Of a stretch of 13,829 nt of DNA, positions 1,429 through 13,829 are shown piece after piece. Position 1 is the first letter of the stretch; the number at the start of each line of letters is the position of its first letter. The notes beneath the pieces are model-generated. The model saw only the letters and a program-made list of their open reading frames with translations, searched no databases and was not told the DNA's origin. Source of the DNA: a virus; UHGV virus genome UHGV-0094592, one strand, 5' to 3'. The translations under genes and the position numbers were made by a program.

Positions 1429-1776
1429 TTATATACGGATTCCAGCGCGTTCTGTTCGTTTCGGGTGCTTCCAGTTGATACCTTCAAGAAGCATAGATAA
1501 CTGAGCCGGAGTAAGGTGAACCTTTCCATCGCGGGTGACCGGCCAGACGAAGCGGCCCCGTTCCAGGCGTTTGGTGAAGAGGCACAGTCCGTCGCTGTCA
1601 GCCCACAACACTTTTATCTGGTCACCCCGGCGTCCGCAAAAGATGAACAGATGCCCGGAGAACGGGTCATCCTTCAGGACGTTCTGAACTTTTGATGCCA
1701 GGCCGTTAAAACCATTTCGCATATCGGTAATACCGGCAACCAGCCAGATACGCGAACCGGCAGGGAGAGATATAAT
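1429..1776 (-). CDS. tnpB: IS66-family TnpB (orf2); conserved N-terminus begins at a non-ATG codon
   Basis: ORF track gives 1429..1722 (MRNGFNGLASKVQNVLKDDPFSGHLFIFCGRRGD...), but the same frame continues upstream without a stop as ISLPAGSRIWLVAGITD-MRNGFNGL, matching the IS66 TnpB N-terminus as I recall it. The only codon at the conserved start position is ATT (1776-1774), overlapping the tnpA TGA stop. Confidence 0.75.
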   Translation of the reverse strand: MISLPAGSRIWLVAGITDMRNGFNGLASKVQNVLKDDPFSGHLFIFCGRRGDQIKVLWADSDGLCLFTKRLERGRFVWPVTRDGKVHLTPAQLSMLLEGINWKHPKRTERAGIRI

Positions 1777-2387
1777 CAGTGGCTGCTCCCTTTCATTTCG
1801 CGGATAAGTGTCTGTAATAACGCCGGCGTCAGTTCACCTTTCAGCCTGAGAGTTCCGGCCGGCAGAACCAGCTCACAGCACAGACTGTCGGGCGGTGTAT
1901 TTATCTGCTCAGGTTCCTGTGCGGGTGCCGGGATTTTATTATCCGGCTCCGGCGTTAACGTCACGGGAAGTAGCGATGTTTCATGTTCGCCGGGCGGCTG
2001 CAGGCCGCCGTTACGCCAGAGATGCCGCCAGTTAAAGAGCAGGTTATCGTTGATTCCGTTCTCGCGAGCTATTTGTGCGACACAGGCACCGGGTAAAAGA
2101 GTTTGCTGAACAAGTCTCCATTTAAACTCCTGTGAAAATCGGTTCCGGCGGTTTTTCTCTGTTTTCACAGTCTGAGTTACTGTCGGGGCTGAAGGGTATC
2201 GCCCCGGGAAAAGAGCCCGGGCCAGTTGCATGCAGGAATATTCACCGGAAAGAGGCCAGTCAGCGAATATCTGGTGAAATCGCCTCACCAGAGAAAAAAT
2301 GGCGGTTTTGCTGACACCGGTCTGCGCAGAAATGCGCGGGTACGACAGTGACTCGTCAAATCTCAGTTGTAGCACACGCAGGATCAA
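1776..2387 (-). CDS. tnpA: IS66-family accessory protein TnpA (orf1) with a predicted N-terminal HTH; start codon uncertain (TTG at 2387 or downstream)
   Basis: 203-codon minus ORF directly upstream of tnpB. HTH-like segment ISAQTGVSKTAIFSLVRRF and the conserved IAREN-GINDNLLFNWRHLWRNG motif typical of IS66 orf1. Confidence 0.8.
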   Translation of the reverse strand: MILRVLQLRFDESLSYPRISAQTGVSKTAIFSLVRRFHQIFADWPLSGEYSCMQLARALFPGRYPSAPTVTQTVKTEKNRRNRFSQEFKWRLVQQTLLPGACVAQIARENGINDNLLFNWRHLWRNGGLQPPGEHETSLLPVTLTPEPDNKIPAPAQEPEQINTPPDSLCCELVLPAGTLRLKGELTPALLQTLIREMKGSSH

Positions 2388-2420
2388 TTCCGGATTATCT
2401 GCCAGTACCGCCTTTTGTGC

Positions 2421-2453
2421 GTAAGCGTCAACGGAGCACCGTATTGACGCTTA
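2421..2453. repeat. IS66-type terminal inverted-repeat-like sequence (GTAAGCGTCAA...TTGACGCTTAT), internally palindromic
   Basis: Plus strand reads GTAAGCGTCAACGGAGCACCGTATTGACGCTTAT. IS66-family ends characteristically start GTAAGCG. It sits between the tnpC 3' fragment stop (2451-2453) and the tnpA start. Confidence 0.6.
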
Positions 2454-2636
2454 TTTATTGGTGAGTACTACGTTCCATGGCAGGAGTTCGCCAACTCGGT
2501 TGGAAGGCCATTCCGGCAGTACGCTCAGAATATGGCGCAGATACGCTTCCGGATCGATACCGTTCAGACGGCAGGTGCCGATCAGCCCGTACAGCAGTGC
2601 TCCACGCTCGCCGCCGTGATCGCTACCGAAGAACAC
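2451..2636 (-). pseudogene. Detached 3' fragment of an IS66 transposase (TnpC C-terminal 61 codons)
   Basis: Translation VFFGSDHGGERGALLYGLIGTCRLNGIDPEAYLRHILSVLPEWPSNRVGELLPWNVVLTNK is the C-terminal tail of IS66 TnpC. Its first residues (FFGSDHG) duplicate the last residues of the tnpC copy cut by the window edge. Homology stops abruptly near 2637. Confidence 0.85.
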
Positions 2637-2699
2637 GTAGATGATATGACCTTTATATACTCACTATAGCATTGGTGGGATATTCCAGAGGAGGTCATC

Positions 2700-2954
2700 A
2701 TGCATTCGGAAAATATTGCGGCTTACGTCGGGCTGGATGTGCATAAAGAAACGTTGGCGGTTGCTATTGCTGCACCTGAACGGCTTGGCGAAGTTCGTTA
2801 TTATGGTACGATTAACAACGAAGCCCAGGCTGTACGTCGATTATTTCAGAAATTGCAGGGACTTTACGGAAACATTCTTTCCTGCTATGAGGCTGGCCCC
2901 TGTGGTTTTGGGCTATATCATCAACTCACGATATTTATAATTAAATGCGCATAA
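2700..2954 (+). pseudogene. IS110-family transposase, N-terminal fragment (84 codons, truncated)
   Basis: MHSENIAAYVGLDVHKETLAVAIA...CYEAGPCGFGLYHQL carries the IS110-family N-terminal signatures (GxDxxK and CYEAxG). Strong RBS GGAGG 7 nt upstream. Full-length IS110-family transposases are several-fold longer as far as I recall, and this ORF ends after only 84 codons. Confidence 0.75.
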
Positions 2955-3005: not shown

Positions 3006-3030
3006 AATTAACTACACCATTAACTACACC
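3006..3030. repeat. Island-boundary direct repeat, left copy (AATTAACTACACCATTAACTACACC; tandem 12-mer ATTAACTACACC x2); candidate att/arm site
   Basis: Perfect 25/25 identity to 13622-13646; imperfect homology continues about 45 bp to the right of both copies. Confidence 0.75.
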
Positions 3031-3521
3031 GTTCGGTGCACTGTATGCAACAATGCGGAACAAATAGACACAAGCGACGGGCTATACCGTTATCATTTTC
3101 CGGCTATCCGCCATGAAGCTGGTGGATGATCACGGATAAACCGTTATGGAAGTCCCCATATCGGCATCATGCCCACCAGCGAGATTAGTTATCTGGTTGC
3201 TGATGGGAGGCTGACGAACCTCGATGCTAGGGTGCGCAAAACTAGTGAGACCTTTTTTCTCTGCAACAGGCCCATAATTCGCGTTTTCTTTGTCTGCCGT
3301 AAGGTGGGGGATTTTTGGCGGATCCAGCAATGGCGCGGATTTTGTGATTTTTTATAGATAGACCTCATCTATCAATCCCGTGCACACCTTCCCAAAAAAA
3401 GTTTTCGAACCTGCGGCGATGTGAACAAGGGTAGGCGGGCGGTCCCATAAGCAATGAGGTGTAGGGATTTCTATCCCCCTGGGGGTATTAAACACCACCC
3501 GATTTAAATACCGTCTTTTTT

Positions 3522-3844: not shown

Positions 3845-3917
3845 TGTGCCCCCATCGCTCTGATAGCCTGGTGTCGTCAGGTCCTTCCTGGAATTATGGC
3901 CCGTTACGGGGCGGCGG

Positions 3918-4460
3918 TTACTCGCCTTTGTTCTGTAGCAACTTCTCAGGCGCGCTTCCGGTAGTTTCCATCAGGTAATCAGCCAGTATCTGTGGCAGGT
4001 TTTCGTCAAGTCTTGCACATGCGTTACATGCTTTGGCTATTTCCCTTTTTAGTTCATCCAGCATATACGGCCTTATATCGGGAAAGCGCCTTTGCATTGT
4101 GAGCGGGAGGCTGTCCATGATTGATGAAATCTGACTCGCTAGTTTTGAAATCGCGTAGATGCAAAACTTTGTATCAATCACCTCGCCGCGTTCGCGCTCG
4201 TTTTTAAGTTCCTGCGCTTCCGCCTGTGCTGTCAGCAATCTGATTCTTACGCGTAAAAGTTCATCATCATCAATCTCGCCTTTGTCGTTTGTAAGCTGGT
4301 TAATTGCATTGTTAACCCTATTGTCTATCACGCTAGCAACATCATAAAACGCCTCACGGCCTTTACGCTCAACGGGAGTTACTCCCCACTTGTCGAACGC
4401 TGTCGCACTTACGCGGCAGCTTTGCGCCATAGTTTTTTTGTTCATCAGGTGCGATTTCAT
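3918..4460 (-). CDS. Terminase small subunit, phage lambda Nu1-like
   Basis: Translation (...RLLTAQAEAQELKNERERGEVIDTKFCIYAISKLASQISSIMDSLPLTMQRRFPD...) matches lambda gpNu1 as I recall it (RLTRAQADAQELKNARDSAEVVETAFCTFVLSRIAGEIASILDGLPLSVQRRFPE). ORF track start is GTG 4472; ATG at 4460 has RBS GGGGA and ATG at 4445 aligns with the Nu1 N-terminus (M..NKK). Confidence 0.85.
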   Translation of the reverse strand: MKSHLMNKKTMAQSCRVSATAFDKWGVTPVERKGREAFYDVASVIDNRVNNAINQLTNDKGEIDDDELLRVRIRLLTAQAEAQELKNERERGEVIDTKFCIYAISKLASQISSIMDSLPLTMQRRFPDIRPYMLDELKREIAKACNACARLDENLPQILADYLMETTGSAPEKLLQNKGE

Positions 4461-4472
4461 CAATATCCCCAC

Positions 4473-4637
4473 TTAGTTAAGGTTTCAGGTTGGTGTGTTG
4501 GTGTTATCTTTCCCTTTTTATTCATAGAGATAGAGCGAAAAACAAAACCACCACCACCAACCCGAAAAGGCTCATAAATAGCGAAAATCCGCAAGGTCGC
4601 CGCCCCGTAACGGGTCCATATGCCGGAAAGGACCCGT
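4473..4637 (-). other. Lambda-type cos site (cosQ-cosN-cosB) with exact cosN 12-mer GGGCGGCGACCT (minus strand, 4605..4594)
   Basis: Minus strand reads ...TTTACGGGTCCTTTCCGG-CATATGGACCCGTTACG-GGGCGGCGACCT-TGCGGATTTTCGCTATTTATGAGCCTTTTCGGG. Lambda right and left ends read ...TTTACGGGTCCTTTCCGGTGATCCGACAGGTTACG / GGGCGGCGACCTCGCGGGTTTTCGCTATTTATGAAAATTTTCCGG. It lies directly upstream of the Nu1-like gene, as in lambda. Confidence 0.85.
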
Positions 4638-4660
4638 AAAAAAAGCCGGATTTCTCCGGC
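4638..4660 (-). terminator. Rho-independent terminator after the capsid operon (stem GCCGGA/TCCGGC, 7-T run on minus strand)
   Basis: Hairpin 4645-4660 followed on the minus strand by TTTTTTT (4644..4638), 6 bp downstream of the 137-aa gene stop. Confidence 0.7.
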
Positions 4661-5092: not shown

Positions 5093-5428
5093 TTATCGCG
5101 CCAGCGGCTGAACGGATACGCCAGAACCCGCAAAGGCGGCGCATTTTTTCGCGTCAGTGTCGGCGCTCTCAGGCCAGTTTACGGCGGCGATATTAAATAT
5201 CCCCGTCTTGTAACACTGTGCTGATTTCTGCTTTGACGTGTCCACGGGGTACGAGGTCAGATAAACAGCCTTCCCAGATTCCTGACCATCCCACGGCTTA
5301 AACTCGCCATTGTCCGCCAGCATCAGCGGGGTAAATTCCTGAATAACGCCAGCATCAGCGGCAAAATGTACCAGCGTCGTGGATACCTGCTGACTGCCTG
5401 CAAATAACTCAATGTATGGAGTGTCCAT
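5093..5428 (-). CDS. Head decoration protein, lambda gpD-like
   Basis: ...FTPLMLADNGEFKPWDGQ...YKTGIFNIAAVNWPESADTDAKKCAAFAGSGVSV versus recalled lambda gpD ...MTPLMLDTSSRKLVAWDGT...[44 protein letters not shown] 4 nt upstream of the ATG. Confidence 0.8.
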   Translation of the reverse strand: MDTPYIELFAGSQQVSTTLVHFAADAGVIQEFTPLMLADNGEFKPWDGQESGKAVYLTSYPVDTSKQKSAQCYKTGIFNIAAVNWPESADTDAKKCAAFAGSGVSVQPLAR

Positions 5429-5439
5429 AGAATCCCCCG

Positions 5440-6495
5440 TTAAGCAATTTTGACGGTAACAAATTTGCGAATATCTGCCGGAACCGGCTGCGGTGCGCTG
5501 TGCGTCTGCACGTACTCAATCGCCGGATCGCCGTCCTCAATCCAGTTTTTCGGGTAGTACATGTTTTGCGTTGCGCCTGTTCTTACCGCTTCCTGATCCA
5601 TAATCGCACCATAGGCCACCAGCCCTTTGTTGTTGGTGTTGCCCAGGACCAGCAAATCAGGATCAAGGAAATATTTTTCTGTGCCGTCGCTGTCAGTGTA
5701 TTTGCCGGAATAGACGATAAGGGCCAGATCACCAAGATAGCCTTTAAAGCTCACCACTTCGCCCAGGTTTTTACATGCCAGCTCTGCGGCGGATTCTGAA
5801 CCACGGGAGAGATCGTACAGTTCACGGAATTTTTTAAAGCTGCGTAACATGCGCCATACATCAACGCCCATAATCATGACGTTTGCGGGGCAACCTGCCT
5901 GATCTGCGTATAGCTCAATGTCATAGATTGGGTCGTGTATGTCTTTGTCCTGCTCTGACCATTTTTTACCGTCGGCCTGCTCTATGATGTTTTTTTCCGG
6001 TATCTTCCAGTCGATTTCATAGCGCTCTATGCCTTCGCCCTCAATGATGTTTTTTCCGGTCGTTATCGCATTCACCGCCAGCCATTCCACGCGCGCTTTA
6101 ATGGCGTTTATCTGGCGGCGCATGTTGCCAGTAATCAGGCGCATACGGCGGTAGGTAGGGTCGTTAAGCTGTGCCGGATCTTCTCCAGCCATGCGCATTA
6201 TTGTTTTTAATGGATCGATTTCGTGTTTTGGCTTCATGTAGCCAGGGCGAATAATGCTGGTTTCGTACCCTTTATCGCGCTGAACCTGGCTACCAACCAT
6301 AGGCGAACAAAACGCCGACATAGTGACTTCTTCAATATCCAGGTTATCTAACATGATGTCCTGTGTGTTGAATGTCGCCACGTTCGGGAAAAACAGCGCG
6401 GTAAACAGCGGACTAAATTTAAATTCCGCAATATCCTCGCGATTCAGGTACGCGAAAAGCTGGTGTGTGTTAAGTGCCATTGCTTTGACTGCCAT
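5440..6495 (-). CDS. Major capsid protein, lambda gpE-like (351 aa)
   Basis: Conserved blocks EFKFSPLF, RPGYMKPKHEIDP, EDPAQLNDPTYRRMRLI, WSEQDKDIHDP, VSFKGYLGDLALIVYSGKYTD, LLVLGNTNNKGLVAYGAIMD and YPKNWIEDGDPAIE align with recalled lambda gpE (KFKFDPLF, TPGYVKPKHEVNP, EDPQNLADPAYRRRRII, WSKRDKSTYDP, VSYKGMYGDVAIVVYSGQYVE, MVLGNTQARGLRTYGCIQD, YPKNWVTTGDPAREF). [11 protein letters not shown]; start overlaps the upstream stop (TAATG). Confidence 0.9.
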   Translation of the reverse strand: MAVKAMALNTHQLFAYLNREDIAEFKFSPLFTALFFPNVATFNTQDIMLDNLDIEEVTMSAFCSPMVGSQVQRDKGYETSIIRPGYMKPKHEIDPLKTIMRMAGEDPAQLNDPTYRRMRLITGNMRRQINAIKARVEWLAVNAITTGKNIIEGEGIERYEIDWKIPEKNIIEQADGKKWSEQDKDIHDPIYDIELYADQAGCPANVMIMGVDVWRMLRSFKKFRELYDLSRGSESAAELACKNLGEVVSFKGYLGDLALIVYSGKYTDSDGTEKYFLDPDLLVLGNTNNKGLVAYGAIMDQEAVRTGATQNMYYPKNWIEDGDPAIEYVQTHSAPQPVPADIRKFVTVKIA

Positions 6496-6786: not shown

Positions 6787-6866
6787 GATATTGAGTTGTG
6801 TTGCAAATTATGAAATGATGATCCCGCTCATGTGTGTCAGTGCACCAAAAAGCCTCATATGCAAAA

Positions 6867-6903
6867 GCCCGATAAGCCACCTCTGACCTTATCGGGCTTT
6901 TTT
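6867..6903 (+). terminator. Strong hairpin with a T-run on both strands (plus-strand T6); bidirectional terminator-like element
   Basis: Stem GCCCGATAAG/CTTATCGGGC (10 bp, 11-nt loop) followed by TTTTTT on plus and TTTT on minus. Confidence 0.55.
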
Positions 6904-7078
6904 ATCTGCCTGCAAAGATGTCGAACGAAAATTAACCACAACCATCATCTTTTTTGCATCAAAACAATTAAAAACAATAAATTACGCTCATGATGATGAT
7001 GACGATAAAATCACAAAAATGCGCTTTTTTCCGCGCCTCCCGCCCCGTGTTCAGGCCCACCCCGCCAGGAGGACCCGT

Positions 7079-7100
7079 AAAAAAGCCGGATTGCTCCGGC
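7079..7100 (-). terminator. Rho-independent terminator after ssb; sequence paralog of the cosQ-side terminator at 4638-4660
   Basis: Stem GCCGGA/TCCGGC with loop, followed on minus strand by TTTTTT; 17 bp downstream of the ssb stop. About 35 bp are near-identical to 4631-4660. Confidence 0.7.
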
Positions 7101-7116
7101 TTCTGTCACTCGTCGC

Positions 7117-7539
7117 TTAAAACGGTATGTTATCCCCGTACGGATCATCATTCCCCGCCTGTTGTTTTGCCCTGTTCAGCGCGTCAGTAGCCTGGCCCTG
7201 TTGACCTTTTTTGCCGCCCAGTCGCGCCGTTCGCGCACTGATTACACTGTCTGCGATAACCTGCCAGCCCTGCCGCGTTTCTCCGTTCTGCCCAGTCCAC
7301 TGGCTGATCTGCATGTTACCCGCCACGCTCAGGAGTTCACCCTTGCGGTGCCTTTCCAGTGCTTCGGCCTGTCTGCCAAATGCCAGGACGGATAACCACA
7401 TCGTCGCCGTTCCGTCATCTGCCTGGCTGCACGGAAGGGGGACCGCCATACGCGCCAGCGTCATCGGTGTGCCCTTGCTGGTCTGTTTTACCTGCGGGTC
7501 GTCCACCAGCCGCCCGTAAGCTGCTATCTGTGCTGTCAT
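7117..7539 (-). CDS. ssb: Single-stranded DNA-binding protein (SSB-like OB-fold with C-terminal ...DNIPF tail)
   Basis: 140 aa. N-terminal OB-fold pattern resembles E. coli SSB; the protein ends ...NDDPYGDNIPF, an acidic IPF tail like the DDDIPF tail of E. coli SSB. Start overlaps the upstream gene stop (ATGA). Confidence 0.8.
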   Translation of the reverse strand: MTAQIAAYGRLVDDPQVKQTSKGTPMTLARMAVPLPCSQADDGTATMWLSVLAFGRQAEALERHRKGELLSVAGNMQISQWTGQNGETRQGWQVIADSVISARTARLGGKKGQQGQATDALNRAKQQAGNDDPYGDNIPF

Positions 7540-7796: not shown

Positions 7797-7990
7797 CTCC
7801 CCACTTTTACTACCCACTTTTTGAAATTACCCAACGTCTCCCCACTTCTTTTTTTTGTGATTCTAACGTGATGTTTTTCAATGTGTTTTTTATTCCCCAC
7901 TTTTTGGGGTATATACAGGTGGGAAAGTGGGGAATCACGTTTCAATTTTGTTAAATTCCCCACACTCCCCACTTTTACTACCCACTTTTT
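7797..7990. repeat. Putative origin of replication: iteron array (CCCCACTTTT family) flanking an AT-rich core
   Basis: 23-bp direct repeat CTCCCCACTTTTACTACCCACTTTT at 7797-7821 and 7965-7989. Additional TCCCCACTT copies at 7837-7848, 7893-7905, 7957-7966 and an inverted copy at 7924-7934. Located directly 3' of the helicase gene. Confidence 0.7.
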
Positions 7991-9404
7991 ACAGTGGGCG
8001 CACGTCATCACCGTCAATAGCAATAACGCCATCACCTTCCAGCTTGTACAGCCAGCGCCGGAAGTGTTTCATCTCATACCCCAGCTTTTTCATATCATCG
8101 CGCAACAACGGAATAGTGCATTTATCTCCGCGCTGTGTGCGTGAACGGATACAGCCCCATAGCGCGGCATGATTCTCCGTCTTGTTCCCGGCTTCCTCGA
8201 TGCGCTCCAGTTCAACGGGTGGGCGCGGCTTATCCACAACAACCAGCGACGTGATTAACTCCCCGTCAGTGTCGGTAAAAAGCTCCACCACACGTAAATC
8301 GTATGCGGCCTCTTTCAGTTCCTCCGCGTCCTTCATTTTTGTGCAGGAGATAACCAGGGCTTCACTGTCTGCACCTTCACGGCGAATACGGTATTCAGCG
8401 TCCAGAGATGCACGAAATGCACTGGAACCACGCGCCCCCTTTGTTTCATCCTTGCCGGAATGGTGAACCACCAGCACCGTGGCCCCTGTGCGGCGTTTCA
8501 GTTCGTCACATCCACGGATAAACGCCCCCATATCCCGCGCGTCATTTTCATCATTACCGCCAAAGCAACGCGCCAGCGTATCAAGAATAATCATGCGTAC
8601 CGGTTTACCCGTTTCCCGTTCAACCTGGCGGGAAGCGATGACCATTTCATCAACATCAAGCGGGACTGCCGGAAAAATCGGGCGGTTTACCAGGTACAGA
8701 TTTTCCACCCGTTCATCATTAACGATTTCCCATGCCTTGATACGGCGGGGGACACCAATGCCACCTTCACCGACAACATACATCACCGAACCATGCGCCA
8801 CCCTGCGGCCTCCCCAGTGACGGCCAGTGGCAACATGACACGCCCAGGAACACGCGAGGAACGATTTATAGGAACCGCTCGCGCCGTATGTGCTGCACAA
8901 TGAATTAGCCGGAATCACGCCCTTAACGACATAATCAAGCTGTGTGTCGTACCCTGCAGATCCAATGCTCATTGGTAGCGTGGTTTTTCGCTGGCTGTAT
9001 TGCTCGTCAGTAAGTATTTCCCCGCGCTCTGCCTGTTCGCGGATCCGTTGCAGGTAGTCGTGCCAGTTCTCCAGCTTCTGGCTGTGCATTCCATCAGGGT
9101 AATAATTCGCATCCCGTACACCTGCCGCCGCCAGCTTTTGCCCGATAGCATTAATATTTGACGGCTTGATGTGGCCTGCCTTGTACAGCCGGACACAATA
9201 GCGACCATCGTCGATAATTTTCAGGTCTGCCAGTTCGTCAAGCTGGCTGTCTCCCAGCCATACAGGCGGGACGTTATCACCAGCAAGTCGCCCGTCCTGT
9301 TCCTGCCACTGTTTCGCGTGCGCCCAGGCATCACTACCCGCAAAAATAATGACTTCGGTCATTTTGTCGTGTGGCTGTTTTTTTAAGTTCGGTGCCAGTT
9401 TCAT
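7989..9404 (-). CDS. Replication helicase, RepA/AAA_25-like P-loop NTPase with an N-terminal domain of unknown function
   Basis: 471 aa. P-loop-like YGASGSYKSF, Walker B-like RMIILDTLARCFGG and the VLVVHHSGKD motif typical of RepA/AAA_25-type helicases. RBS AGGGG. Start overlaps the upstream stop (ATGA). Confidence 0.8.
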   Translation of the reverse strand: MKLAPNLKKQPHDKMTEVIIFAGSDAWAHAKQWQEQDGRLAGDNVPPVWLGDSQLDELADLKIIDDGRYCVRLYKAGHIKPSNINAIGQKLAAAGVRDANYYPDGMHSQKLENWHDYLQRIREQAERGEILTDEQYSQRKTTLPMSIGSAGYDTQLDYVVKGVIPANSLCSTYGASGSYKSFLACSWACHVATGRHWGGRRVAHGSVMYVVGEGGIGVPRRIKAWEIVNDERVENLYLVNRPIFPAVPLDVDEMVIASRQVERETGKPVRMIILDTLARCFGGNDENDARDMGAFIRGCDELKRRTGATVLVVHHSGKDETKGARGSSAFRASLDAEYRIRREGADSEALVISCTKMKDAEELKEAAYDLRVVELFTDTDGELITSLVVVDKPRPPVELERIEEAGNKTENHAALWGCIRSRTQRGDKCTIPLLRDDMKKLGYEMKHFRRWLYKLEGDGVIAIDGDDVRPL

Positions 9405-11814: not shown

Positions 11815-12003
11815 TTAGTGAACTGCCTCGCAGCTTTCCTTCCATGCCAGAACTTCGGATAAAGACCAGCCAACGGAACGACCGCCGAGCTTACGCCGTG
11901 ATGGGAATTGTCCGGTTTTTTCCAGGCGGTACCGACATGAACGGCTCAGGCCTGTAAGTTGCTGACATTCTTTTTCACGTATAAAGCGATCTGTGCTTAA
12001 CAC
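11815..12003 (-). CDS. alpA: AlpA-family (prophage CP4-57-type) transcriptional regulator, 62 aa from GTG start
   Basis: Motif ...CQQLTGLSRSCRYRLEKTGQFPSRRKLGGRSVGWSLSEVLAWKESC is the AlpA/Vis-type HTH signature. GTG at 12003 is preceded by AGGGGGA. ORF track lists a longer 11815..12171 version. Confidence 0.8.
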   Translation of the reverse strand: MLSTDRFIREKECQQLTGLSRSCRYRLEKTGQFPSRRKLGGRSVGWSLSEVLAWKESCEAVH

Positions 12004-12288
12004 AATTCCCCCTTTGATATTTCTTAAAGAGTTATTTGGTGTCCTATTGTGTTGTGGTGCGTCGGATTGTGTCAGGGTGTTTATGGAATGGCAAACACTG
12101 GCGGCGGTCATTTTACAGAAGTGTGGTAATGAGAATAAAAACTCTTTTAATTCATTGTGGTGCAAAGGCATAAAATTCTGTTTTTACGCCTTTTTTACAT
12201 GTTTTTAAGAGTGATTCGCCAATGTACAAAAAGCCAGTAAAACGACTGAAAATCAACTTTTTAGGGTGTCAGTCAGATGTTAATCAAG

Positions 12289-12370: not shown

Positions 12371-13621
12371 TTATATTTCTCTGGCTATTGGCAGTGTGGT
12401 TACGTTTTTGTGAGTACCCGCCAGTATCTCTAACCGCTCTGTCCACATGTCCAGCGCATTACGTTTCGCATCGAGATAACGGGAGTGGTTATAGACTCGC
12501 TGCATCCCTGGCATCTGGTGAGCGGTGAGTTGTTCGACAATATGCGGATCCACGCCTAAATCGTTCAGCATCGTGGTAAACGTGCGCCGTATATCGTGTA
12601 GTGACCAGTGCGGATGGTTTAATTTTTTGTGCATGAATCTGCCGTATTGCGACACACTGGCTTCCTGTTTCAGTTCCCCGAGTAATAGCCCTGTGTGTCT
12701 GTTCTGCTCCACCAGCTGCGTGACGAACGGTAAAATGCTTTCCGGTATTGGCCTGAATATGGCGACCTTCGTTTTGCTGTGCTCTTTCGGTACTGTCCAG
12801 AGCATTTCCTTAAAATCCCACTCCCTGATCTCCGATAATCTCAGTTCTCCGGTTCGGCAGCCGAACACAATCAGGAGGCGGATTAGTGCGCTGTAGTAGG
12901 GCGGGAATATTTTTTTATCCAGCGCCTGTAATAATTCGCCAAGTTCTTTGTTGCTCAGCACGCGTTCGCTTATGCCTGGTTTTTTGCCAACGTCCACCAC
13001 GTTAAGATCATCCAGAACGTTACTGACTGCGTAGCGACGTTTACGGCAGAACTTAAGCGCCTGTTTACACGCCTGCATCATGTGACCAGACGTTACAGGG
13101 GATTTTTTGCGTATCCGGTCAAAACAGGCCAGCCAGTGACGTAACTCGCATTTATCCAGTGGCATATTGCCAATATGCTGTATGACGTGATTATTCAGGC
13201 GGCTTTTCAGGCATACGTAATCGACACGGTTTTCCTTTACGTGCATTTCCAGCCAGTAGCTGATCGCATCACCCACCGTTACCGGCTTTAGTGCTTCCTG
13301 TATGGAGTAATTAAGCTCATGGCGTGGATTTTTTCCTTCTGCCAGCCATGCGCGACACTGTGCCGCTTTTTCCCTGGCTGCTTTCAGGCTCAGATCAGGA
13401 TAATTTCCCAGCTTCAGGCGTTCCGGTGATACCTGGCGTCCAGCTCCTGCTCTGTAGGTGAAATACCAGGTTAATAAGCCGCTGGTGGAATGCCTGACGC
13501 TCAGGTTTCCACCGTCATTAAGAAATGTGGTTTTTGGGGCTGGTGTGCCGTTGATTTTTCTTAGCTGTGTATCGCTCAGTTTGTTAAGTGCTCTGCTCAT
13601 AATTTTGAATCCGGTCATCAC
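12371..13621 (-). CDS. int: Tyrosine recombinase / integrase, P4-type
   Basis: 416-codon ORF. N-terminal region LSDTQLRKI...YPDLSLKAAREKAAQ resembles P4-family integrase N-termini. C-terminal catalytic motifs include HDIRRTF (HxxR) and a tyrosine within RVYNHSRYLD. ORF-track start is GTG 13621; in-frame ATGs at 13618 and 13600 are alternative starts. Confidence 0.9.
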   Translation of the reverse strand: MMTGFKIMSRALNKLSDTQLRKINGTPAPKTTFLNDGGNLSVRHSTSGLLTWYFTYRAGAGRQVSPERLKLGNYPDLSLKAAREKAAQCRAWLAEGKNPRHELNYSIQEALKPVTVGDAISYWLEMHVKENRVDYVCLKSRLNNHVIQHIGNMPLDKCELRHWLACFDRIRKKSPVTSGHMMQACKQALKFCRKRRYAVSNVLDDLNVVDVGKKPGISERVLSNKELGELLQALDKKIFPPYYSALIRLLIVFGCRTGELRLSEIREWDFKEMLWTVPKEHSKTKVAIFRPIPESILPFVTQLVEQNRHTGLLLGELKQEASVSQYGRFMHKKLNHPHWSLHDIRRTFTTMLNDLGVDPHIVEQLTAHQMPGMQRVYNHSRYLDAKRNALDMWTERLEILAGTHKNVTTLPIAREI

Positions 13622-13646
13622 AATTAACTACACCATTAACTACACC
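13622..13646. repeat. Island-boundary direct repeat, right copy (AATTAACTACACCATTAACTACACC), immediately upstream of int
   Basis: Identical to 3006-3030. Confidence 0.75.
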
Positions 13647-13829
13647 GATCATTGCACAAGGGGGTACAACGTGGAACAAGTTGGAACAAGAAAAATTGCA
13701 ATGAGCTTAAAAATCAAAAACATAATGAACAACGTGGCACATTATGAAACAGCAAAAAACACTAATTTATAAAATCACAGCGATGAATATAAAATGCCAG
13801 GTTATTGCCCCTTCCCGCATACCAAAATC

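Follow-up and report, generated by a model that had tools for sequence, protein, structure and literature searches.

The whole functional cos of bacteriophage lambda (cosQ-cosN-cosB) measures ~200 bp (PMC4669245). Lambda-like phages conserve the 7-bp cosQ (highly so), the cosN left half and the flanking CG pairs, whereas natural cosN variation is concentrated at positions 7-12 and does not measurably alter cleavage (Feiss et al. 2015, PMC4669245). Specificity pairs of small terminase (TerS) and cosB are known for lambda and phage 21, and termination of packaging is not cosB-specific (PMC4669245).

The satellites P4 (helper P2) and SaPIbov5 (cos phages) carry the cos of their helper and are packaged by the unmodified helper terminase (cf-PICI preprint; PMC6092414). 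The E. coli island EcCICFT073, mobilised by lambda and phi80 (PMC6092414), has two functional cos sites, both with the lambda cosN. Transfer of the island requires its cos1, the site that RppA-TerS recognises, and the published tests covered only these two lambda-type sites (PMC6092414, PMC6739421). Transfer by lambda rose upon deletion of cos2 (PMC6092414, PMC6739421), so extra cos sites can be costly. EcCICFT073 has been thought to depend on lambda-class helpers via Rpp and its private cos, and its discoverers (2019) left open why there are several cos sites. The choice of packaging site sets which phages spread a satellite and hence the reach of its virulence and defence cargo.

The DNA analysed here (the window, 13,829 nt) is 100% identical to E. 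coli clone D i14 (NC_017652.1), whose island has been named EcCIDi14 (PMC10111431). The initial annotation described, besides a cos region at 4593-4660, a degenerate cos-like paralog fused to a terminator downstream of ssb. This second site, called site 2 below, is very probably a phage cos in its sequence.

The island and its two cos sites

The phage satellite (PICI) is bracketed by the direct repeat 3006-3031 / 13622-13647 and has a unit length of 10,616 bp. The repeat can be followed over 3006-3074 / 13622-13690, the first 26 nt (AATTAACTACACCATTAACTACACCG) being identical, and these stretches are likely attL and attR. The island interrupts a transposase gene of the IS110 family (IS110/ISEc45), fragments of which remain at 2700-2954 and past 13760. 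On the left flank of the island, window positions 1429-2954 form a mosaic of insertion-sequence fragments, with IS66-family remnants (orf1, orf2 and a transposase C-terminus) and IS110 elements. The minus strand carries every island gene; those that concern us, with the lambda-type cos, are as follows.

12371-13621, minus strand: integrase
11815-12171, minus strand: AlpA
7989-9404, minus strand: RepA-type helicase
7117-7539, minus strand: ssb, single-stranded DNA-binding protein (Pfam PF00436 SSB, E = 4.9e-15; RefSeq annotation)
Minus strand: 68-aa protein
5440-6495, minus strand: lambda E-like capsid protein
5093-5428, minus strand: lambda D-like decoration protein
Minus strand: 137-aa protein
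4594-4660, minus strand: lambda-type cos of the island, with hairpin 4645-4660, T-run, cosQ 4629-4635 and cosN GGGCGGCGACCT 4594-4605
3918-4472, minus strand: Nu1-family small-terminase homologue, directly downstream of the lambda-type cos (Pfam Phage_Nu1, E = 1.3e-23)
Minus strand: 93-aa protein

Along its whole length the Nu1-like protein shares 37% identity with lambda Nu1 (E = 3e-35). BLAST found no similarity between it and RppA of EcCICFT073, and PDB sequences searched with the Nu1-like and 137-aa proteins gave no Rpp match; the island is thus without an RppA/C-type protein. Where EcCICFT073 has its 144-aa RppA, behind the lambda-type cos, this island has the full-length Nu1 homologue. 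Genome contigs searched for relatives with the capsid protein gave no usable match, and an Rfam scan of the window returned no family. Between the helicase gene and an 83-aa gene, at 7797-7991, are iteron-like repeats, with CTCCCCACTTTTACTACCCACTTTTT present twice, 168 bp apart, and three 19-nt copies at a spacing of 83-85 bp; they probably mark the replication origin of the island.

The lambda-type site reads AGGTCGCCGCCC on the plus strand at 4594-4605, the reverse complement of the lambda cohesive end GGGCGGCGACCT. Of the first 25 bp past the nick, 23 are identical to lambda, after which identity drops to ~52%. The site occupies the same position as cos1 of EcCICFT073, whereas site 2 does not share the EcCICFT073-type position. 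In CFT073, cos1 and cos2 flank rppA in inverted orientation (L004 15529+ and 16339-). The inverted lambda-type cos2 of CFT073 and Nissle 1917 has the 93-aa gene on one side and rppA or the Nu1-like gene on the other (L002 3738-3800; L004 ~16270-16339); the equivalent position of the window, 3845-3917, is a gap of just 73 bp with no cos. The Nissle 1917 island has three cos sites, and that of the window has the cos1-position site and site 2, without the inverted one.

The two sites of the window share orientation and are 2,440 bp apart. Read on the minus strand, both consist of a hairpin, GCCGGAG-(C/A)AA-TCCGGC, a T-run, ACGGGTCCT, ~22 nt and then ACG|GGGCGG, the bar marking the nick. The 12 bases past the nick are GGGCGGCGACCT at 4594-4605 and GGGCGGGAGGCG at 7034-7045, the latter appearing as CGCCTCCCGCCC on the plus strand. 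A global alignment of 7031-7100 with 4593-4660 is identical in 52 of 72 columns and scores 26 (z = 8.8; 5000 shuffles gave a mean of -10.2, sd 4.1 and maximum 6). The initial annotation had claimed that ~70 bp at 7031-7100 parallel the cos region and that the 3' ~35 bp, including hairpin and A/T run, are nearly identical. Both statements hold: the 3' part (7066-7100 against 4626-4660; hairpin, T-run and cosQ) is identical at 31/36 and the 5' part at 21/37, so that similarity reaches beyond a generic hairpin. A repeat finder singled out AAAAAAGCCGGATT[G/T]CTCCGGC at 7079-7100 and 4639-4660, 21/22 identical. The segments are present as they had been described, save for a start coordinate that is one base off, the cohesive end being 4594-4605. 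From the nick onward, however, site 2 and the lambda-type cos are ~51% identical, the level of unrelated DNA in that alignment. The near base-for-base sharing of terminator, T-run and cosQ between the two sites would fit an exchange of modules.

The ssb hairpin has a 6-bp GCCGGA/TCCGGC stem, lengthened by flanking pairs and followed by U6. It stands 17 nt past the ssb stop codon, and with it site 2 begins. The minus-strand RNA folds at -18.3 kcal/mol (z = -4.1), that of the hairpin at the lambda-type site at -16.9 kcal/mol (z = -3.5). With these features the ssb hairpin is a predicted intrinsic (Rho-independent) terminator. A simple consensus promoter/terminator scan listed neither hairpin (7079-7100, 4639-4660), a silence that should not count as absence of a terminator, since both fold at about -17 to -18 kcal/mol.

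A phage cos cassette behind ssb

The homology of site 2 to phage cos regions spans 7083 down to 6914, far beyond the 70 bp first noticed. Its parts are these.

7085-7100, then 7079-7084, minus strand: ssb terminator, hairpin GCCGGAG-CAA-TCCGGC followed by a T6 run; upstream boundary of the cos cassette
~6903-7078, minus strand: whole cos cassette (cosQ-cosN-cosB), ~175 bp, from an alignment of the filled site with the empty site of L177
7070-7076, minus strand: cosQ GGGTCCT, 31 nt before the predicted nick, an exact match to lambda cosQ
7034-7045 (with flanks 7032-7048), minus strand: cosN cohesive-end equivalent GGGCGGGAGGCG, flanks ACG| and |CG; left half as in lambda
6914-7033, minus strand: cosB-like region, flavour a, CGGAAAAAAGCGCATTTTTGTGATTTTATCGTCATCATCATCATG ... 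AAGATGATGG ... GTTCGACATCTTT, identical to the EC69 prophage
6862-6899, minus strand: second hairpin, AAGCCCGATAAGG...CTTATCGGGCTTTTG, RNA fold -14.8 kcal/mol; downstream cassette boundary

The boundaries come from the sister satellite L177 (IMG/VR). It matches the window at ~96% identity in two parts, one covering the end of ssb and the hairpin, the other reaching from the second hairpin across the promoter region into the 68-aa gene. Between these parts it has 7 nt where the window holds ~175 bp, and the second hairpin there adjoins the ssb hairpin. As the ssb hairpin is present in sister satellites without the cassette, it is native to the 3' end of ssb and only marks the insertion point. 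The cassette extends from the T-run/ACGGGTCCT (7078) to GTTCGACATCTTT (6914) and 12 bases beyond it. Its homology to phages, and to the copy found behind a capsid-fusion gene in other satellites, is bounded by these two points as well. This extent, cosQ to ~+130, corresponds to the whole functional cos as defined in lambda.

Site 2 keeps intact all three elements that lambda-like phages conserve: cosQ, the cosN left half and the CG pairs beside it. By these elements site 2 has the expected make-up of a lambda-like cos: its cosN, GGGCGG|GAGGCG, differs from that of lambda solely at positions 7-12, and the distance from cosQ to nick, 31 nt, lies in the range of 29-31 nt found in phages of the same class. 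The cosB of VT1-Sakai has inverted arms, ATCATCATC/GATGATGAT, around an A/T-rich segment, as reported by an inverted-repeat finder. In the window cosB the shorter arms CATCATC / GATGATG were read by eye; the finder listed none in that cosB, probably because it leaves out short-period runs.

E. coli EC69 (NZ_CM128670.1) has a lambdoid prophage whose cos region agrees with positions 6914-7083 at 169 of 170 bases (99.4%), GGGCGGGAGGCG included. The bases that had been called degenerate in the cosN equivalent are therefore the phage's own. In EC69 the match is the intergenic region between the lysis gene Rz and the genes for a DUF1441 TerS, the large terminase (TerL) and portal, and the Rz-to-terminase position is where cos stands in lambda. 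The EC69 proteins were identified as DUF1441 (E = 6.5e-49) and as a gpA-type large terminase with ATPase and nuclease domains (E ~1e-81 to 1e-83). The DUF1441 TerS has no detectable similarity to lambda Nu1.

The 190 bp that surround site 2 were compared with a phage collection; over ~170 bp, and in the same position, VT1-Sakai is 87.6% and eight Stx2 phages are 87-91% identical, and an O157:H7 prophage also matches at the corresponding position. The records of the phages cdtI (AB285204.1) and Tritos (OV696610.1) begin exactly at GGGCGGGAGCGT and end in GGGTCCT...CCACG, so the homologous site is the deposited genome end, the position of the nick in lambda. Positions 6960-7125, used as a query, find matches in 1,663 of 5,426 complete E. 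coli genomes, and these occur in two kinds of context: satellites, after ssb or after a ClpP-protease/capsid fusion gene (L005, L006, L009), and lambdoid prophages, between Rz and the DUF1441 gene, followed by large terminase and portal (L007, L008). Copies in the Rz-cos-DUF1441 context are present in 399/5426 complete E. coli genomes, many of them ExPEC.

Among the matches listed, EC69 is the sole phage context of the exact cosN variant, with A at position 8; in other flavour-a phages that position is C or T, and their GGGCGG-to-CGCGG spacing ranges over 10-12 nt. A phage may also have taken the site from a satellite, which could likewise account for the near-identity to EC69. In L007, L018, L021, L074 and other phage loci the length from GGGCGG to CGCGGAAAAA varies, giving a cohesive-end equivalent of 10, 11 or 12 nt, even among phages with 98-100% identical large terminases.

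For typing of the region past cosN, at least 120 stretches were collected from IMG/VR with the pattern GGGTCCTCC-N16-28-ACGGGGCGGG. The region falls into discrete flavours, and in phage contexts each goes with a particular DUF1441 variant. TerS identities, and the TerL identities given with them, are listed below, the reference for TerS being that of O157 (L007).

Flavour a (that of the window): DUF1441 TerS 94-100%, TerL 98-100%
Flavour b: DUF1441 TerS 77-78%, TerL 100%
Flavour d: DUF1441 TerS 56-57%, TerL ~70%
Flavour f: DUF1441 TerS 59%, TerL ~70%
Flavour c: DUF1441 TerS 33-37%, TerL ~70%

Such co-variation is the pattern that would be expected of pairs of recognition site and protein. The 120 bp past the cosN of site 2 are identical to the phage region preceding terS, and the DUF1441 binding sites in them are putative. 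The paired flavours and variants are a ready data set for DNA recognition by this uncharacterised small-terminase family.

Recurrence in satellites

To count the cassette independently of the cos pattern, 80 IMG/VR loci were chosen by similarity to the window SSB, of which 78 were usable. A cos of this class lies within 130 nt of the ssb stop codon in 54 of them and is absent from 24. The initial annotation had raised the question of a functional second cos in related islands; most of these satellites carry a candidate cos at this position and the sister L177 does not. The cosQ is canonical in 35 of the 54 and altered in 19, and at least four cosB flavours occur in the ssb slot, each with a phage counterpart. 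Near-identical copies also differ by point variants in cosQ (GGGGCCT in L135, GGGTTCT in L178). With the 19 altered sites in the 78 loci, this indicates that constraint on the site is not absolute.

In capsid-fusion satellites without a TerS-like or Rpp-like gene, the flavour-a cassette is the only cos with an intact cosQ; this holds for 15 distinct sequences among the matches listed. One such satellite, L224, is embedded in a prophage between its terS and terL, and that prophage likewise has a flavour-a cos. These satellites are the clearest comparative sign that the flavour-a cassette may serve satellite packaging by cos mimicry. Helper-embedded PICIs have been reported (PMC10111431), and the embedding of L224 between the helper's DUF1441 terS and terL resembles theirs but involves a different late gene. 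Adjacency of capsid-fusion satellites to a prophage large-terminase gene is seen in L024, L067, L220 and L233 as well as in L224.

Further variants were recorded. An ssb-linked flavour-b cassette in which TAGGTACT replaces cosQ, while cosN and cosB are kept, occurs in at least 21 IMG/VR stretches (L027, L067, L095, L205, L219-L235). All of these are in satellite context, and where the surroundings are visible the neighbour is a capsid-fusion gene and the second cos has an intact cosQ. The replacement may avoid termination at an extra site. A rule by which cosQ at the ssb slot is altered only when both sites are of the same class was considered and dropped, L093 having two intact sites of one class. 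A cosN variant, GGGCGGCAGACG, adjoins Nu1-like genes in some satellites (L128 at ~9048, and others) and is also found in other or partial contexts.

Probable packaging at site 2 and comparison with known systems

Site 2 is most likely a complete and functional cohesive-end packaging site. Its ~175 bp cassette would have been captured from a lambda-like phage that uses a DUF1441 TerS, a member of the class to which the EC69 prophage, VT1-Sakai and the Stx phages belong, and inserted directly behind the intrinsic terminator of the satellite ssb. When a flavour-a helper grows in a cell with an induced, replicating island, the DUF1441 TerS of the helper would bind the phage-identical cosB, and the gpA-type TerL would thereby be placed to nick ACG|GGGCGG at 7045|7046. 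Packaging of island concatemers into helper capsids would then run toward lower window coordinates. No island-encoded specificity factor would be needed at site 2, which would amount to cos mimicry. The other cos (4594-4660), with its lambda cosN, private cosB and adjacent Nu1-like protein, would serve helpers with a TerS of the Nu1 family (lambda, phi80, phage 21). Cleavage and packaging at site 2, and the range of its helpers, are what we infer from these sequence comparisons. The island probably uses the site for packaging, and it is a likely reading that the captured helper cos provides a second packaging specificity, for DUF1441-TerS phages, beside the lambda-type cos and the Nu1-like protein.

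Capsid size limits the length of DNA that a packaging run can deliver. A run started at site 2 would meet site 2 again after four units (42.5 kb), a length near that of the genomes of phages of the class (44.5-47 kb). A lambda-class run from 4605 would come to site 2 first, at ~40.0 kb, and to its own cos only at 42.5 kb. As termination is not cosB-specific, it could end at site 2 with mismatched cohesive ends. This suggests that site 2 is costly with lambda-class helpers, echoing the published result with cos2.

It could be held instead that the cassette is a neutral relic of recombination with a helper or a capsid-fusion satellite during co-replication, with no role in transfer here. In the four genomes that are listed with an identical site (Nissle 1917 is one) this cos class occurs just once, which leaves no resident helper prophage evident and is a point against packaging. 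Lineages with point-variant or otherwise altered cosQ exist, and EcCICFT073 and L177 are without the cassette, the former being still mobilised by lambda and phi80. We nevertheless regard a relic as unlikely, because the cassette lacks nothing between cosQ and the cosB end and is all but identical to a phage cos, because the slot has been filled repeatedly by at least four full-length, phage-matching flavours and is kept in 54 of the 78 ssb-selected satellites, and because a second cos expected to be costly with lambda-type helpers makes neutral retention harder to explain.

A role in interference is considerably less probable still. A phage-identical cos, amplified with the island, could titrate or misdirect the helper terminase or add termination points and so lower helper yield; PICIs do interfere with helper packaging (PMC6739421), and any gpA-type terminase could cut at site 2. 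Yet a site that is bound by terminase and cut on a concatemer also starts packaging, the two functions being inseparable by sequence, and the use of the same cassette as the only intact cos by capsid-fusion satellites points to packaging. Least probable of all, and hardly tenable, is the origin proposed in the initial annotation, by which the island long ago duplicated its own cosQ/terminator/cos module internally. The agreement of the two sites over hairpin, T-run and cosQ speaks for it. Beyond cosQ, however, site 2 is at the level of unrelated DNA to the lambda-type cos and at 99.4% to the phage cos, its supposedly degenerate bases are those of the phage, and the hairpin belongs to the 3' end of ssb even where no cos follows. 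What stands of that annotation is a cos-like element joined to the ssb terminator and sharing terminator, T-run and cosQ with the first site; its degeneracy and its descent from that site do not stand.

Returning to the captured, functional packaging site as the preferred reading, it can be extended to a dedicated cos slot behind the ssb terminator, through which complete cosQ-to-cosB cassettes are exchanged with helpers by recombination, in a two-way flow, so that each island would gain a repertoire spanning the specificities of unrelated TerS families, Nu1 and DUF1441. We rate the chances of this wider proposal as even. If true, it would answer the question, left from 2019, why PICIs carry several different cos sites. 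Site 2 would target a second and very common lambdoid class, that with the DUF1441 small terminase, which includes Stx1/Stx2-type phages and many ExPEC prophages; if it works, phages of the Shiga-toxin type could mobilise satellites like those of clone D i14 and Nissle 1917.

With lambda, site 2 shares cosQ GGGTCCT ~30 nt before the nick, ACG|GGGCGG, the CG after the cohesive end and, past cosN, a segment of CGCGG, homopolymer and GC; the class of site 2 is also like lambda in having inverted repeats around an A/T-rich stretch in cosB and a gpA-family TerL in the source phages. It differs from lambda at positions 7-12 of cosN (CGACCT in lambda, GAGGCG in site 2), in cosQ spacing (30 versus 31 nt), in an unrelated cosB (~47%) and in the cognate small subunit, which is Nu1 for lambda and DUF1441 for site 2. 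Its closest relatives are the lambdoid phages with a DUF1441 TerS (cdtI phage, Tritos, mEp460, VT1-Sakai, EC69 prophage), which have the same cos sequence family. In these phages cos lies between the lysis genes and terS-terL, behind an A/T-rich palindrome, whereas in the island site 2 lies behind the G+C-rich ssb terminator and ahead of genes for capsid homologues.

EcCICFT073 is an E. coli PICI of the same family, likewise with more than one cos, but has no site of the class of site 2. Its cos1 and cos2 have the lambda/phi80 cosN, in contrast to GGGCGGGAGGCG, so that by identity site 2 falls outside their type. Its cos1 has a private, PICI-specific cosB, whereas site 2 has a phage-identical cosB and stands 3' of ssb, 2.44 kb from the Nu1-like gene. 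When the literature was searched for the cohesive-end strings and for further cos sites of PICIs, nothing came up but unrelated papers and the two on EcCICFT073, and the searchable literature, outside which the study of cosN natural history by Vahanian et al. (2017) falls, contains no description of an ssb-linked non-lambda cos. By its phage match across the putative terminase recognition region, site 2 resembles the cos of satellites that carry that of their helper. In P4 and SaPIbov5, however, the mimic is not combined, as it is here, with a second cos of other specificity and a Nu1-like protein, nor does it occupy a recurrent cassette slot behind ssb. Cos mimicry by satellites and PICIs with several cos sites were thus known already; what is new is a phage-identical cos of a different small-terminase class in the ssb slot.
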